Source: a virus (taxonomy: Duplodnaviria > Heunggongvirae > Uroviricota > Caudoviricetes). From it: DNA of 42,039 nucleotides. The position numbers and the translations under genes are program-made. This document shows positions 1 through 42,039 of the stretch, one piece after another. Within the stretch, counting starts at the first letter, position 1. Each line of letters starts with the position of its first letter. The notes beneath the pieces are model-generated. The model searched no databases. It was not told the origin of the DNA and worked only from the letters and a program-made list of their open reading frames with translations. The stretch lies in the IMG/VR virus record IMGVR_UViG_2737471829_000004. The stretch is one strand, 5' to 3'.

Positions 1-923
1 AGCCGTCACGGTGTTTTGTCCGGCTGACCATCCGGCCTGCGGCGTCATAGTCATACTGCGTGTTTCCGGCCTGTTTCAGCCGGTGGCCTCCGGCATACTG
101 GTCAGTCTCTTCACTTATCCGGTGCCTGCCCGCAGACTGCGCCTTCAGGTAGCCACAACTGTCATAGCCATAGGACTCATCGCCTTCGCCATAGCCCAGC
201 CCGGTGCCTGAGGCTGTCACCGCCGTGACCTGGCCGTTCCGGTCCAGCCGGTATTCCCGCCGTGTTTCCCGTCCGTAATCTTCCCGGCTGGTGACGCCTG
301 ACACGTTACCCGCGCTGTCGTAACGGTACTCCCGTACCAGTGAGGGAACCAGCCCGCCCCATGTGGCTTCTTCCGGAAAAAATCCGGCGCGCTGGCTGAC
401 AGGCTGACCGGCTGCATTCCAGCCCTGTTCACAGGCAAAACCCCGGTTACTGTGCCGGAGCACTTCACGTCCCGCCTCATCACGGCTGAACGTCAGCGTC
501 TCATCCCCCGGCAGGATAACCTCTGCCAGTTCTCCGGCGGCGTTGTAACGGTAGGTGGTTTTCAGCAGGGATTCATCGGGATGTCTGTCGCGTTCATCTT
601 CCGGTGGCAGGATACAGCGGATGACGGTGTGTTCATCGGGGTAGTGGTATTCAATGGCCCGTCGGCCCTGAGTGGTGACATTCACCCGGCCGCGTTCGTC
701 GTAGCCGGTGCGCTGTGATGTGCCGTCCGGGCTGAAGATACCCGTCAGCCTGCCGGATTTGTCATAGGCATACTGCGTTTTCCCTTCCGGCGAGATGACT
801 TCTGCCAGGCGGCCTGCGGCATCCCGGCTGTAGAGGATGGTTTCCTCCAGGCCGTTAACCCTGGCGGTACAGAGGCCATCGGCGTCATAGCGGTAACGCC
901 AGACCACGCCGCCCCAGTCATGC
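1..923 (-). pseudogene. rhs gene, 3' portion of the Rhs repeat core, separated from its 5' part by the prophage; continues beyond window start
   Basis: Minus-strand frame read from 923 downward gives an open YD-repeat sequence (..DWGGVVWRYRYDADGL..YAYDKSGRLTGI..YRYNAAGELAEV..YRYDSAGNVSG..) with no ATG-initiated ORF in the track. It continues in frame from the Rhs ORF right of the prophage. Confidence 0.75.
919..923. repeat. Target-site duplication, left copy (CATGC)
   Basis: The 5 bp just outside the left Mu end are identical to the 5 bp just outside the right end (38021-38025). Confidence 0.8.
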
Positions 924-1262: not shown

Positions 1263-1781
1263 TTATACGGCTTTTTTTACATCTTGTGGTTCTTGCGAAG
1301 GAGCTACAAGACCTTCCTGTTCATGAATACCATGCTCTGACAAAATCTCTTTGCGCTCTTCTGCTGGTAAAGTTTCTAGCATTTGGGCGAGTTGTATGCA
1401 CTCACGCGATACGCCGTGCAGAGATTGGATTTGAGTCTGATCAAAGATACTTGGCATTAGTGCACTAAGTCCACCTTTACTAAGTAGCTTTAATGCCCTC
1501 TGGATTTCCTCTGGTTCTAACTCTGCAACCAAAGCCATTAACACAGAAGCTAACTTATAAGCTGACTTATCGTTATCTAATAACTGCGCCCCTCCTAATT
1601 CTGCCTGAGTGGCATCAGGTAATGAGCTGATATGGTATTCATAAGCAACACCCTTTACTCCTTTGATCTGTCTCTTTTTCCATCCCTCATTAGTTGCTTT
1701 GCGGCTAATACTACTTGCTGAAGACGGAAGACCAGCAACCCCTTGTAGCTCTTTAGCTGAAAACCATTCTTGTGTCATCAC
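1263..1781 (-). CDS. c: Prophage repressor (c), D108-type
   Basis: 172-aa ORF divergently placed from ner-A-B. Its N-terminus ([36 protein letters not shown]) is paralogous to the transposase N-terminus, as in Mu-family repressors. Confidence 0.85.
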
Positions 1782-37247: not shown

Positions 37248-37306
37248 CTTATTTATTCCTGCTGAAAAGCAGCTCCTCATGGCATAAAATTGTTCACGTG
37301 AGTTTA

Positions 37307-37344
37307 AAATGACCAAATGGCAGTACAGTATTTGGTCATTTTAT
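37307..37344 (+). terminator. Hairpin downstream of mom
   Basis: 12-bp inverted repeat aaaatgaccaaa...tttggtcatttt with a large loop, followed by T residues. Confidence 0.45.
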
Positions 37345-37376
37345 GGGGTGAATTTTAAAGTCAAAACGATGGTAAG

Positions 37377-37718
37377 GTGCATATGAAAAAAATACTCATA
37401 GCAGTACTACTTTGCTTTGGTGTTCTTTCTGCTAATCAGGCAATAGCGGCTGTTACCTTAAGCGGTAAGTATCCTGCATGCATATCTGCTAATGAATTCG
37501 AGCGATTAAGCTCAATTTTGCAACACGAAGATCAAGAGGCGTTTGAAGAGATCTTTAAGACATCATGCTTTATGCCTAAAAAGGGGGTTAAAGTTGATAA
37601 AGTTGTTTCTATGGGGTGGACCAGTGGAGTTGCGCATGTCAAAGTTTATGTAAAAGGCAATCTTTACGATCTTTGGACTAACACCGAAAATCTTCAGTCC
37701 GAGAAGGCTGGTAAATAA
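37377..37718 (+). CDS. Small secreted protein of unknown function (cargo/moron candidate)
   Basis: 113 aa; signal peptide MKKILIAVLLCFGVLSANQAIA-AV; RBS aaggtg 5 nt upstream; locally AT-rich; lies inside the prophage between mom and attR. Confidence 0.5.
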   Translation: MHMKKILIAVLLCFGVLSANQAIAAVTLSGKYPACISANEFERLSSILQHEDQEAFEEIFKTSCFMPKKGVKVDKVVSMGWTSGVAHVKVYVKGNLYDLWTNTENLQSEKAGK

Positions 37719-37899
37719 CGCTGTAATCAACGTGTAATCACATCTCCTACCAGCTATCGCCTGATAAAGTTAGGTGATAGCTATTTCAATACTCTCTAGT
37801 TTCACTGAAAGCACGAAACTTAATACCTCCATTCCAGATTGCTTAATAATCGAGCATTTTTATCTTGAATGTTTTTGCGCGCTTTATCAGCCATACCCT

Positions 37900-38020
37900 A
37901 AGTGATCCCCATGTAATGAATAAAAAGCAGTAATTAATACTGCTGTTTCATTTGAAGCGCGAAAGCTAAAGTTTTCGCATTTATCGTGAAACGCTTTCGC
38001 GTTTTTCGTGCGCCGCTTCA
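37900..38020. promoter_or_regulatory. attR region with transposase-binding end sites (R1-R3-like)
   Basis: tgaagcgcgaaagctaaag, cgtgaaacgctttcgcg and the terminal ..tttttcgtgcgccgcttca match the recalled Mu right end. Confidence 0.7.
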
Positions 38021-38025
38021 CATGC
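38021..38025. repeat. Target-site duplication, right copy (CATGC)
   Basis: Identical to 919-923. Confidence 0.8.
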
Positions 38026-40850
38026 TCTTCCGTCACCCGGCCGCAGTTATCCAGAACATAAAGATATGATTCACCCTGCGGGTTAATGACTTCTGTCAGT
38101 TGCAGCGTGTCTTTATCGTAGCGGTACTGCCAGCGGTGGCCTTCACCGTCCGTTCGCGCCACCGGCAAATCGAACGGGCCGTACTCCATTGTCCAGACAA
38201 CACCATTGCCGTCCGTGTACGCCAGCAGGTTGCCGTGGCGGTCATAGCGAAATCCTTCCGCGCCGGTTCCAGCACGTTCAATGCCGCTCAGTTTATGGTG
38301 CTGCTGCCACTGTAACCGCACTGACTGACCGCCGGGGCCGCGCATCTTCACCGGCAGGTCGTGACCGCTGTATTCGGTGTGGTGTTCACGGCCCATCACG
38401 TCGGTGAGTGTTTCCGGCCGGTTGTGGTGGTCGTACTCTATGCCCAGACGCCGTTCATCCTGGCGGAATATTCCCGACAACAGCCCCTGAGCGGTGTACG
38501 CCAGCCGGGTCTCTTCGCCCTGTGGCGACACCAGGCTTACCGGCAGGCCGCGTTCATCGCACAGCTGTGTCCACGTCTGCCCGGCAGGGTCGGTGATGTT
38601 GCTGAACAGGCCGTGCTCATCATAGCGGTACAACCACTCCGCGCCGTCTGCCGCCGTGTAACGGCTTAACTGACCGTGTGCGGCGTTGTATTCAAACTTC
38701 TCCACCCGCCCGGCAGGGGAGTGGCGGGCCAGCAGGTGATGGAATTCATCCCATTCATACGTGGTGGTGCTGCCGTCCGGCGCTTCTTCCCGCAGAATAT
38801 TGCCGTCAGGATCATAGTAATAACGGTGAATGCCCTTGCCGTCCGTCACGGTGGTGCAGCCGTCACCATAGTCCAGCGTGGCGTTGTAATAGCCCTCCGC
38901 CCCGGTGACATTCACGCACCGGCCCTGTGCATCGTAGGTGAAACGGCTCCACGTCTGGTCGTTATCGGACCAGCGGATGATCCGGTCCGCAGCGTCGTAC
39001 TCATAAAACAGGTGGTAGTCCAGCCGCGCATCCGCTTCTGTCAGCCGCCCCCGCGCATCCTGTTCGTAGGTCGCCAGCGTCTGTATGCCGTTATCCGTGC
39101 GGTGAATGGCTTTCAGGTAGCCGCTGGCATGGTACGTCAGTTTAAGCCGGATCCCGTCGGTGTGACTGACACCCGTGATCCGGTACTGGCTGTCGCGCTC
39201 AAACGTGATGCGGTTGCTGGCGGTGTCACTCATCCCGCCCAGCATATACATCCGGTCACCGGGGCTGTGTGCCAGGCGGTCATCGCTGGTATCGTCAGTC
39301 ACCGGGTGGCGCAGACGCATTCCCGGAAAGGCGTCATAAAAGAAGCGGCTGCTCAGGGCATCACGGTCGAACAGCTCCAGGTAATCATCACGGCGGCGCA
39401 GGATGTACTGGGCGTGATACGGGTTAACCGCCGTATCACTTTCACCGTCGAAGGCGAAGTTCAGCGTGGCTCCCAGGCTGATGATATCCACCCGGTTTCC
39501 CTGTTCACGCACCCAGGCGTATTCGCTCCAGGAGTCGCTCCAGCCCACGCCGGTCAGGCCATGCAGCGGCAGTACAGAACTGTGGAAACGGGTGAAGGAG
39601 AGGGGGAGTGTCTGGCCCAGGGTGAAGTCGGTACGTTCGTCGCAGTACGCGCCGGTTACCGGATCGACAGGATCTGTTACCCATCTGATGACTTTATTGG
39701 CAATACTTTTTAACGACTTACCTGTTTTCCCCAGCAACGCGCCGAGCTTTGCCCCCAGCAGCTTCCCGCTTTTCCCCAGCAGGTTCCCCAGTTTGCCGAG
39801 TCTCGCCAGATTCTTCAGTTTTCCCAGCAGTCCCGCTGGCGGCAGAAGATAGCTGGCTATCGTTATTCCCCCCAGGATCATTCTCTGCCACGGCGGGAAC
39901 TCCGGCTGGATATCCAGATAGGTCACCTGCTCACCGCTAATAAAGACGTCCGGCGAACCTCCCACGATTGCTGCGCTGCACTCCAGTTTGTCGCCCTGGC
40001 GTGCGGCAGGCTGATTGTTGATAAAGACGTTGCTGCTGCCCTGGGCTATCCTCGGTGGTTTGTTCTCCTTGTCGCAGAGCGCCGTGTCCTCACCGGCTTC
40101 CGGGAAATCCACATCTTTTTTGATTTCGCCACGCCCGCCCACCATGGTGGCAAACTCCATTAATACCGGACCGGCGGGAAACAGAAGCGATGCGCCGGCG
40201 CTGACGCGATCCATAAAACCGGCATTGCTGTCCGTCAGGGTGATAACAGCGTTCCCCCAGGCCTTCGCCAGTGGTACTGCTTTTTCCGCTGCCGATTCAA
40301 GCAGGTCAGTGGCAATATCACCCCATGAGGGTTCCCCCTGTGGGACTTCAGGTATTGCTCCAGGTGGGGGAGGAGGGGGAAGGGTGACGGCGGCCCTGGC
40401 AGCGGGCTTTCCGTTAATTTTTACGTTTTCAGAACCGGTATTGATGGCGCCGTCCGTGTCACAAAAACTGTTTATCCATGACTCAAGCTGGTTCTGTTTC
40501 TCCTCCACATAATCACTCGCCTTATAGCTGGCATACATCAGCGCAGGCACCAGAACCAGCGCATAAGGGCCGGTGGCACAGGCGGCCATAATCAGGCAAC
40601 CTTCTGCGATGGTCACTATCGCCCCCAGCACGGCCCCTGCCAGCGCCCCCAAAAAACTCTTGTGCTGAATTTCATCGCCCAGCCTGGCGGCGGGGGGGCC
40701 AGACTTTTTTGATGCCAGCATCTGTGCAATGGCTTTGTCGTTGGCTGCCCGTTTCATCTGGCTGGCGACCATCGCCTGCTGTGACAGCATTCGCATTGCC
40801 AGCGTACCGCCTGCGGTCGCTCCCTGTGGCCCGCCTGGTCCTTCACTCAT
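38021..40850 (-). CDS. prePAAR-TM-PAAR-Rhs T6SS effector, 5' portion (943 codons), interrupted by the prophage
   Basis: N-terminal AARLGDEIQH (prePAAR motif AARxxDxxxH), hydrophobic helices (FLGALAGAVLGAIVTIAEGCLIMAACATGPYALVLVPALMY), PAAR-like motifs (VKINGKPAARAAV, VFINNQPAARQGD) and many YD repeats. The track ORF continues to 37887 by reading about 44 codons into the Mu right end. Confidence 0.8.
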
Positions 40851-40869
40851 GTGTTATCCCTCGTTTATG

Positions 40870-41331
40870 TCAGCGCGGCTGGTCCTTTTGGATGTCATTC
40901 TCCGGTGGCAACGGGGTGAAGCTCTTTATCACCTCCAGCAGCATCGTCTTTTGACTGTTCTTCAGGGATAAGGAGGTGCTGAAAGTGAAGGTCAGCAGCG
41001 TATCTCCACGCCGCTGGAATACGGCTATCTGGCTAATCCGCCCCTGATTCCCCTCATCTTCCGGACCGTTCCAGGAATAATCCAGCAGCCAGGCCGGGGC
41101 CTCTGCCAGAGTGATTTCCCGGCAGGCATGTTCGGTGTACCCATCAAGTTTGCCCTGGTACAGCGCCAGCGTTTCCTGGTACAGCTCTGGTGTCAGGGTT
41201 CCCTGTGGAACGGCTTCGCGGGTAATGACCAGGTTGATGCCACTGTTATCTGTGGACACCAGGACCTGCATTGACTGATCCTGCCATTGAGACGGCAGTT
41301 GAATGTGGCCTTCATTAAAAGTGAACTGCAT
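40870..41331 (-). CDS. DUF1795-family (Eag-type) chaperone for the prePAAR effector
   Basis: 153-aa ORF between vgrG and the rhs effector; sequence resembles DUF1795 proteins; the gene order is the canonical vgrG-eag-rhs arrangement. Confidence 0.7.
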   Translation of the reverse strand: MQFTFNEGHIQLPSQWQDQSMQVLVSTDNSGINLVITREAVPQGTLTPELYQETLALYQGKLDGYTEHACREITLAEAPAWLLDYSWNGPEDEGNQGRISQIAVFQRRGDTLLTFTFSTSLSLKNSQKTMLLEVIKSFTPLPPENDIQKDQPR

Positions 41332-41358
41332 AAAATACTCCCTGATAATCTGAGTGAA

Positions 41359-42039
41359 TCAGTTGATGAAAACAGAACCGCCCACGATGGTGATGCCATC
41401 CTTCGACAGCCTGATTACCGTCGATTCCCCGACCTGTAGCTGAATGCCATCCGGCGTCAGCGCAATTTTGCTTTCCTCCACGGCCAGCAAAATTTCCTTA
41501 ATCGCCGTATAAGCCTGTATACCGTCGCCTTCGCCACCATTGTTTACAGCGTCAACATGCACCGAACCGGCAATCGTGCCTCTGTCCTGAAAGACATCCT
41601 CAGATAAAGACCCTTTCAGTACTCCGGTGATCTTGTGGCCTTTTTCCACCGTAAGAAGGCGGTTACCTTCCTGGATCGTGACCGTCTGGTCATTTTTTAC
41701 GGTTTCGCGGTGATCGTGTTTTACGGTGGTGGTACGGTCGTTGAGCACTTCGGTATCCATGTTCTTCTGCGCGTGGATGTAGACCTGTTCTCTCCCTGTC
41801 GCATCATCAAACTTCAGCTCATTAAATCCGCTGCCCATGTACGTTTTGGAGCGGATGGTCATCTGCGTCTTTGTTCCCGGCAGGCTGCCGGGGGTGCGGT
41901 TTTCCTGGTGGTAGGTGCGCCCCATAATGATCGGCTGGTCCGGATCGCCGTTGAGGAAGTCTACAATCACCTCCTGACCCACACGCGGTATCGCCAGGTG
42001 GCCAAAACCGGTGCCTGCCCACGCCTGTGCCACACGGAT
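41359..42039 (-). CDS. vgrG: VgrG (T6SS spike), C-terminal part; 5' end lies beyond the window
   Basis: Contains the conserved gp5-like motif GQEVIVDFLNGDPDQPIIMGRTYH and downstream beta-helix-like repeats; the frame is open to the window edge. Confidence 0.85.
   Translation of the reverse strand: MRVAQAWAGTGFGHLAIPRVGQEVIVDFLNGDPDQPIIMGRTYHQENRTPGSLPGTKTQMTIRSKTYMGSGFNELKFDDATGREQVYIHAQKNMDTEVLNDRTTTVKHDHRETVKNDQTVTIQEGNRLLTVEKGHKITGVLKGSLSEDVFQDRGTIAGSVHVDAVNNGGEGDGIQAYTAIKEILLAVEESKIALTPDGIQLQVGESTVIRLSKDGITIVGGSVFIN

Follow-up and report, generated by a model that had tools for sequence, protein, structure and literature searches.

Insertion of a Mu-like prophage into the rhs gene of an Escherichia coli vgrGO1-eagR-rhs type VI secretion module

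Among type VI secretion system (T6SS) effectors, those of prePAAR class I are large proteins with YD repeats that have a single transmembrane domain (TMD) region N-terminal to PAAR (PMC7773334). In the intact system, the prePAAR and PAAR segments form a cone on the VgrG needle and the YD shell encloses the toxin, which is released by aspartyl autoproteolysis at DPxGL motifs; the hydrophobic N-terminus is shielded by the chaperone EagR (PMC8636562, PMC7773334). Escherichia coli carries an island named vgrGO1-eagR-rhs-CT, in which vgrGO1 and eagR are both needed for Rhs-CT delivery, according to the summary of Ma et al. 2017 contained in PMC6730261. The 'pathogenic island 1' of Shiga toxin-producing E. 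coli (STEC) O22:H8 strain 154 comprises vgrG1 of the VgrGO1 type, eagR (DUF1795/DcrB), and rhs together with immunity genes (bioRxiv 10.1101/2024.03.05.583533). Here we describe a copy of this module in which rhs is interrupted by a Mu-like prophage. It lies in IMG/VR virus record IMGVR_UViG_2737471829_000004, a stretch of 42,039 nt that was analysed as a whole and is called the window below.

The locus is a known, widespread, and already described auxiliary T6SS module of E. coli, vgrGO1-eagR-rhs, whose rhs gene encodes a polymorphic toxin of the PAAR-Rhs kind. We searched 5,426 complete E. coli genomes, with presence defined as a match to the 4-kb segment at a coverage of at least 80%, and found the module in 2,042, located between cusS and nfrB. 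It is the same locus as the vgrGO1-eagR-rhs-CT island, with gene order and the cusS/nfrB position common to both; of the 4,019 nt at 38021-42039, all but 2 agree with strain 154, one of the best-matching genomes, and with hundreds of others. The differences are that here rhs is split after codon 943, that the substitutions G305S and R746H are apparently private, and that the C-terminal toxin is off the window. The window is organised as follows:

1-918, minus strand: 3' continuation of rhs, YD repeats, 306 codons, running off the window start toward the toxin and immunity genes
919-923 (left) and 38021-38025 (right), no strand: target-site duplication CATGC, 5 bp
924-38020, plus strand: Mu-like transposable prophage of 37,097 bp, recognised by its Mu termini and its identity with phage PhiR68_1
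38021-40850, minus strand: 5' part of rhs, codons 1-943 and the first base of codon 944
40870-41331, minus strand: eagR, gene for an Eag-family (DUF1795/DcrB) chaperone of 153 aa
41359-42039, minus strand: vgrG, 3' part, for a spike protein of the VgrGO1 type; final 226 codons, with the rest past the window end

The prophage, a natural and apparently intact one, has entered rhs by transposition and separates codon 943 from codon 944, at about the midpoint of the beta-cage. By alignment, window position 924 is base 1 of Mu and position 38020 is the last base of both the Mu and the SfMu records, and the GC content of about 0.60 falls to 0.40 at 38020 and likewise at 924. Over the first 19 kb tested the prophage is 98.2% identical to PhiR68_1, and its open reading frames (ORFs) include apparently intact transposases A and B, a repressor, and mom. 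Once the phage and one CATGC copy are removed, the flanks read through as a single frame of 1,249 codons, still open at the window start. Over 4,937 nt, this reconstructed empty site and the uninterrupted locus in E. coli 268.2 differ at 2 nt. In that strain the intact rhs product has 1,620 aa, DPLGL at 1444 and 1466, and a zincin-like toxin, with a 69-aa ORF downstream. Empty sites are present in many genomes, in which the flanks abut with exactly 5 bp of overlap and CATGC is present once. Because the flanks abut in this manner in uninterrupted genomes, the phage-rhs junction is a genuine product of Mu-type transposition. Excision of Mu is not precise, and the loss of rhs is therefore effectively permanent unless another rhs copy recombines. 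Very probably, this is a loss-of-function allele of a known module, generated by an ordinary Mu insertion in the rhs of vgrGO1-eagR-rhs.

An earlier note, made without database searches, had identified the host genes as vgrG, an Eag (DUF1795) chaperone gene, and a prePAAR-TMD-PAAR-Rhs gene. This identity stood, as searches for PAAR, DUF1795, and RHS domains were all positive. The rhs ORF matches prePAAR_I, PAAR_motif, DUF6531, and RHS_repeat of Pfam (E 8.6e-44 for the last) and also YD_repeat_2x (E 2.5e-45) and NF033420. The eagR product scores 96.8 bits with Pfam PF08786 DcrB (formerly DUF1795), for which the cut-off is 27.2. Its nearest solved structures are EagT6 6XRF and 1TU1 at E 1e-5, which is weak by sequence; there was no SciW entry at E <= 0.01 among solved structures, and no NCBIfam model matched the protein. 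The C-terminal part of VgrG matches TIGR03361 VI_Rhs_Vgr (E 9.6e-54) and the Pfam models Gp5_trimer_C and Phage_base_V. The 226 VgrG residues in the window are the end of the OB-fold and the gp5 needle; the gp27-like part is off the window and is present in identical loci, and vgrG is 1,902 nt at full length in uninterrupted loci. Neither the domain scores nor the exact transposon ends could plausibly have arisen by chance.

All three genes are on the same strand, with intergenic gaps of 27 nt (vgrG stop to eagR) and 19 nt (eagR stop to the rhs ATG). Both eagR and rhs are preceded by a Shine-Dalgarno sequence, that of the rhs start (ATG at 40850) being GAGGG. The position of eagR between vgrG and the gene for a TMD-containing PAAR effector makes its product a putative partner of the Rhs N-terminus. 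The arrangement vgrG-eagR-rhs looks like a single operon with a promoter upstream of vgrG, outside the window. Scans for σ70 promoters across 37300-42039 and 1-2300 found no site, and a truncated rhs product, hereafter the stump, therefore relies on this off-window promoter.

The best solved relative of the Rhs protein is Rhs1/Tre23 of Photorhabdus laumondii (7PQ5_L, E 2.5e-148). Alignment to it, together with the domain models, gives the following layout of the part of the protein that is still encoded at 5' rhs:

40662-40691, minus strand: prePAAR motif AARLGDEIQH, residues 54-63 of the translation, which fits the AARxxDxxxH of PMC7773334
40527-40664, minus strand: transmembrane/hydrophobic region by Kyte-Doolittle, residues 63-108, with room for two helices
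40386-40436, minus strand: first PAAR repeat GSENVKINGKPAARAAV, residues 139-155; aligns to Photorhabdus Rhs1 up to residue 139
40092-40385, minus strand: 98-aa insertion in the PAAR domain, residues 156-253, with no counterpart in the Photorhabdus Rhs1 alignment
39933-40091, minus strand: rest of the PAAR domain, residues 254-306 (PF05488, 4JIW); carries G305S
39822-39893, minus strand: post-PAAR hydrophobic helix, residues 320-343 (Kyte-Doolittle 1.62); aligns to the EagR-bound post-PAAR region of Photorhabdus Rhs1
39651-39674, minus strand: motif DPVDPVTG, residues 393-400; its aligned counterpart in Photorhabdus Rhs1 is D288-P289, where N-terminal autocleavage occurs
38022-39650, minus strand: DUF6531 and YD repeats (models DUF6531 and RHS_repeat), about the first half of the Rhs beta-cage, to residue 943

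The earlier note had placed AARLGDEIQH at the N-terminus of Rhs and had assigned the protein to prePAAR class I. The motif is there, and PF25799 prePAAR_I passes narrowly, with 26.5 bits against a cut-off of 25. The PAAR domain scores 58.5 bits with PF05488 at residues 255-296 and matches the PAAR protein of structure 4JIW at E 1.5e-7. As judged from its sequence, the protein appears to fit the published class I definition (PMC7773334), with the qualification that it has a hydrophobic post-PAAR helix, as does the class I protein Photorhabdus Rhs1. The claim of a single hydrophobic region between prePAAR and PAAR was right as to the strong region at residues 63-108, where the peak in a 19-residue Kyte-Doolittle window is 2.13. 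Beyond it there are weaker hydrophobic segments at 216-239, in the PAAR insertion, and at 324-343, in the post-PAAR helix, and 'one hydrophobic region' is therefore a simplification. Cleavage at DPVDPVTG would be expected in the E. coli protein by analogy with the N-terminal cleavage site of Photorhabdus Rhs1 (PMC8636562). Rhs residue 942 pairs with residue 821 in the alignment to Photorhabdus Rhs1, whose shell spans 290-1342, so the break is at about mid-cage.

What would be made from the interrupted gene? The chimeric ORF has 987 codons, of which 943 are from Rhs and 44, the first straddling the junction, are from the Mu right end in antisense. The predicted extension of about 44 codons into the phage is thus exactly 44. 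Two features are found here:

37887-38020, minus strand: Mu-derived tail VKRRTKNAKAFHDKCENFSFRASNETAVLITAFYSLHGDHLGYG followed by TGA at 37887-37889
37926-37944, minus strand: hairpin followed by TTTTATTCAT, inside the Mu-derived tail and upstream of the stop, a possible weak terminator

The hairpin at 37926-37944 has a predicted RNA fold of -14.1 kcal/mol (z -3.8) and a stem of 7 bp with 3 G-C pairs. The scan for terminator-like sites gave 12 sites against 5.1 +/- 2.6 in shuffles, a modest excess. The product would lack its toxin, as the earlier note had also said, for the reading frame stops before the C-terminal part. The 5' rhs ORF loses about half of the beta-cage, the DPxGL autoprotease motifs, and the toxin, and keeps the prePAAR motif, the TMD, PAAR, the post-PAAR helix, and the N-terminal cleavage motif. 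The appropriate annotation would be an rhs pseudogene fragment fused to a Mu end for the 987-aa ORF, and the displaced remainder of rhs for positions 1-918.

This displaced remainder is a stop-free frame that is continuous with codon 943, matches RHS_repeat at E 8.8e-29, and is 100% identical to intact rhs genes. Genomes that are identical over 1-923 have differing C-terminal toxins, and the toxin type therefore cannot be inferred for this strain. Translation of the 3' fragment from within Mu was considered and rejected: an in-frame TAA lies at 971-973, ATG codons are absent, and the sole candidate start, a GTG at 907, lacks a Shine-Dalgarno sequence. Translation of the fragment is unlikely. 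The phage repressor gene is directed toward the displaced part of rhs, and the scan found no terminator-like site between them on that strand. Given this orientation and the absence of such a site, read-through into the orphaned rhs, toxin, and immunity region is possible.

Relative to intact alleles, only two codons of rhs are changed, G305S (39938) and R746H (38614). Both changes are nonsynonymous and both are in the stump; G305S affects the conserved glycine of the PAAR 'FIGG' motif. All the best database matches score equally, and the two substitutions therefore appear private to the strain. Relaxed constraint following the split of the gene could account for them, as could sequencing errors; two changes prove nothing. 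Other truncated or fused alleles of the same Rhs N-terminus (39651-40850) are numerous in the protein database. For example, it is fused to an ISAs1 transposase in P0039 (29 contigs), to NfrA in P0004, and to NrfB in P0031, and it is joined straight to a toxin, with the cage deleted, in P0003 (31 contigs). Short forms include P0027 of 269 aa and P0019 of 344 aa. The island decays often and stump alleles are commonplace. Since stumps made by insertion sequences (IS) and by deletions are common, the one made by Mu is not special.

Under the loss-of-function reading, the insertion would cut off the remaining cage, the DPxGL autoprotease motifs, and the genetic information for toxin and immunity from the promoter-proximal 5' part of rhs. 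The operon would still be transcribed into the phage end, giving a 108-kDa stump. For Photorhabdus Rhs1, VgrG recruitment needs no more than prePAAR-PAAR, TMD1 and the post-PAAR region are bound by EagR, and a C-terminally truncated form that keeps prePAAR-PAAR still recruits both VgrG and EagR (PMC8636562). By comparison with that protein, the stump would retain all known determinants of EagR and VgrG binding, along with the N-terminal cleavage motif, and might load onto VgrG, as the earlier note had suggested. For Enterobacter cloacae, the account of Donato 2020 given in PMC10763514 is that PAAR stabilises VgrG and that an intact beta-cage is required for efficient T6SS assembly. Because of this cage requirement, a complex of stump and VgrG is probably non-productive. 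The half-cage stump is likely to be either unstable or held in secretion-incompetent complexes with VgrGO1. The net outcome would be that this effector is lost and no toxin is delivered: a stump that lacks half the cage, the protease motifs, and the toxin implies loss of toxin delivery from the locus. Several points weigh against this account. Expression and stability of the stump are predicted; the vgrG promoter lies off the window, as do the T6SS core cluster and the toxin and immunity genes; the cage requirement is borrowed from another genus and a different Rhs; and the hairpin with its T-run could end transcripts ahead of the stop codon, which would lead to tagging by transfer-messenger RNA (tmRNA).

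Is the stump then made at all? Or, if it is made, does it interfere with secretion? It is a tentative possibility, which we take seriously, that transcripts end at the Mu-end hairpin or that a misfolded half-cage is cleared, such that no stump is present and VgrGO1 stays empty. On the rhs strand, the hairpin with its T-run is found 35-55 nt ahead of the stop codon; the shell is truncated at about 50% of its length; and Photorhabdus Rhs1 is unstable without its chaperone (PMC8636562). However, the hairpin is weak, having the short stem given above, terminator-like sites exceed the shuffled expectation only modestly, and the EagR-bound N-terminal domain of Rhs1 is a stable unit in vitro. The opposite outcome is that the 987-aa product, or a 40.8-kDa N-terminal fragment cut at D393-P394, accumulates with EagR, caps VgrGO1 trimers, and blocks the loading checkpoint, with the result that T6SS1 firing drops by more than the loss of one toxin would explain. 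We consider this dominant-negative effect unlikely, though not negligible. Every binding determinant is kept in the stump, truncated RhsA reportedly formed stable VgrG complexes that failed to bring secretion back, the truncated Photorhabdus protein still binds EagR and VgrG (PMC8636562), and the E. cloacae results, as far as PMC10763514 relates them, have PAAR stabilising VgrG and the cage needed for efficient assembly. Yet the published truncations end at domain borders and not mid-cage, and half a cocoon may misfold and be degraded. Moreover, the private G305S falls on a conserved PAAR glycine, and E. coli that bear the island have several other rhs copies (each record shows 4-5 matching places), which would leave other spikes able to fire.

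Could the stump instead be of use, as a cap without a toxin that sharpens or stabilises the VgrGO1 spike and aids firing and other effectors, with the 5' part of rhs under selection? T6SS activity depends on PAAR proteins in some species (PMC8651079) and many natural E. coli alleles retain just the Rhs N-terminus, truncated or fused, but we regard such a function as very improbable: an intact cage is needed in E. cloacae, many of the short alleles are frameshifted or end inside PAAR and so resemble decay and not selection, and both private substitutions in the stump are nonsynonymous. There is next to no chance that the junctions are an assembly artefact arising from mis-joined contigs. The junction was not found in the 5,426 complete E. 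coli genomes or in the protein catalogue, nor was the left junction found in species-representative genomes; against an artefact, both junctions are exactly at Mu terminal bases and are flanked by a perfect 5-bp host duplication that is single in empty sites. We give little credence, finally, to a bolder combination in which VgrGO1 is capped by the stump or by its EagR-bound N-terminal fragment and the loading checkpoint is jammed, so that lysogeny partly silences T6SS1, and in which, separately, the 98-aa PAAR insertion is a new element of spike loading or membrane entry. The loss-of-function allele remains the reading that we prefer.

The 98-aa insertion lies between the first PAAR repeat and the remainder of the domain, and its first part is rich in proline, while residues 216-239 form the weakly hydrophobic segment. 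It is missing from the class I effectors of Serratia, Yersinia, an Erwiniaceae bacterium, and Burkholderia, whose PAAR is contiguous. When the insertion was searched alone among 1.84 billion protein representatives, the only matches were copies in this same Rhs of Escherichia, Shigella, and E. marmotae, plus artefacts. Three candidate homologues were rejected. P0067 (811 aa) is the same Rhs from C-to-T converted DNA (P to L/F, A to V, H to Y, R to C/W), and is probably a catalogue artefact from the assembly of bisulfite-type reads; the matches of P0072 and P0073, which are LRR and PPC proteins, are spurious and due to repeats. An AlphaFold2 model of the N-terminal 400 aa from a 7-sequence alignment had a mean predicted local distance difference test (pLDDT) score of 30.9 and is unusable. 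Limited to Escherichia and Shigella, the insertion is the one feature for which we found no description in the T6SS literature examined, and it may merit follow-up.

The prophage itself has features of its own. Its repressor gene (1263-1781, minus strand) is not of the Mu c type, and across the immunity region alignment to Mu and D108 DNA is fragmented or begins late. Compared with Mu and SfMu, there are about 700 bp of extra DNA (window 37248-37900) between mom and the right end that are unmatched in either phage. They contain an ORF at 37377-37718 (plus strand) of 113 aa, with a hydrophobic, signal-like N-terminus, low GC content, and no PHROG match, and this extra right-end DNA is possibly cargo of the phage (a 'moron'). 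In E. coli 2014C-3075 (NZ_CP027447.1, 801108-801407), another chromosomal site carries the same right end, 100% identical over 300 nt, and the annotation at that place is of an ABC transporter substrate-binding protein. Its presence at a different site there shows that this type of phage is active in natural strains.

How does the interrupted module compare with its relatives? Photorhabdus Rhs1 is alike in the prePAAR-TMD-PAAR-postPAAR-shell layout, in an EagR gene that adjoins vgrG and rhs, and in an equivalent N-terminal cleavage motif, which is DP|V in E. coli and DP|I in Photorhabdus. Unlike it, the E. coli Rhs has the 98-aa PAAR insertion and a longer N-terminal leader, and the Photorhabdus gene is in the main T6SS cluster and encodes an ADP-ribosyltransferase toxin. 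With Salmonella Rhs1-SciW and Pseudomonas protegens RhsA-EagR1 (PMC7773334, PMC8765631), the locus shares an upstream DUF1795 gene and a large effector that has the AARxxDxxxH motif, apparently one N-terminal TMD region, PAAR, and YD repeats; it differs in that the motif is at residue 54 and not near the N-terminus, and in that PAAR is interrupted.

The truncation mutants of E. cloacae RhsA, which keep PAAR and lack an intact cage, are the engineered counterpart of the stump. They differ in species, in the Rhs concerned, and in their truncation points, so that their result as cited in PMC10763514 and PMC8636562, with VgrG stabilised and secretion not supported, would transfer to the E. coli stump by analogy only. 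Conversely, this allele is a natural counterpart of laboratory Rhs truncations, and could be used to ask whether a half-cage that bears PAAR blocks or supports T6SS firing in E. coli. As an insertional mutation, it resembles those made by Mu, D108, and SfMu in its exact Mu termini, its 5-bp duplication, and its location inside a coding sequence; it differs from them in that the prophage here is a natural relative with a non-Mu immunity region.

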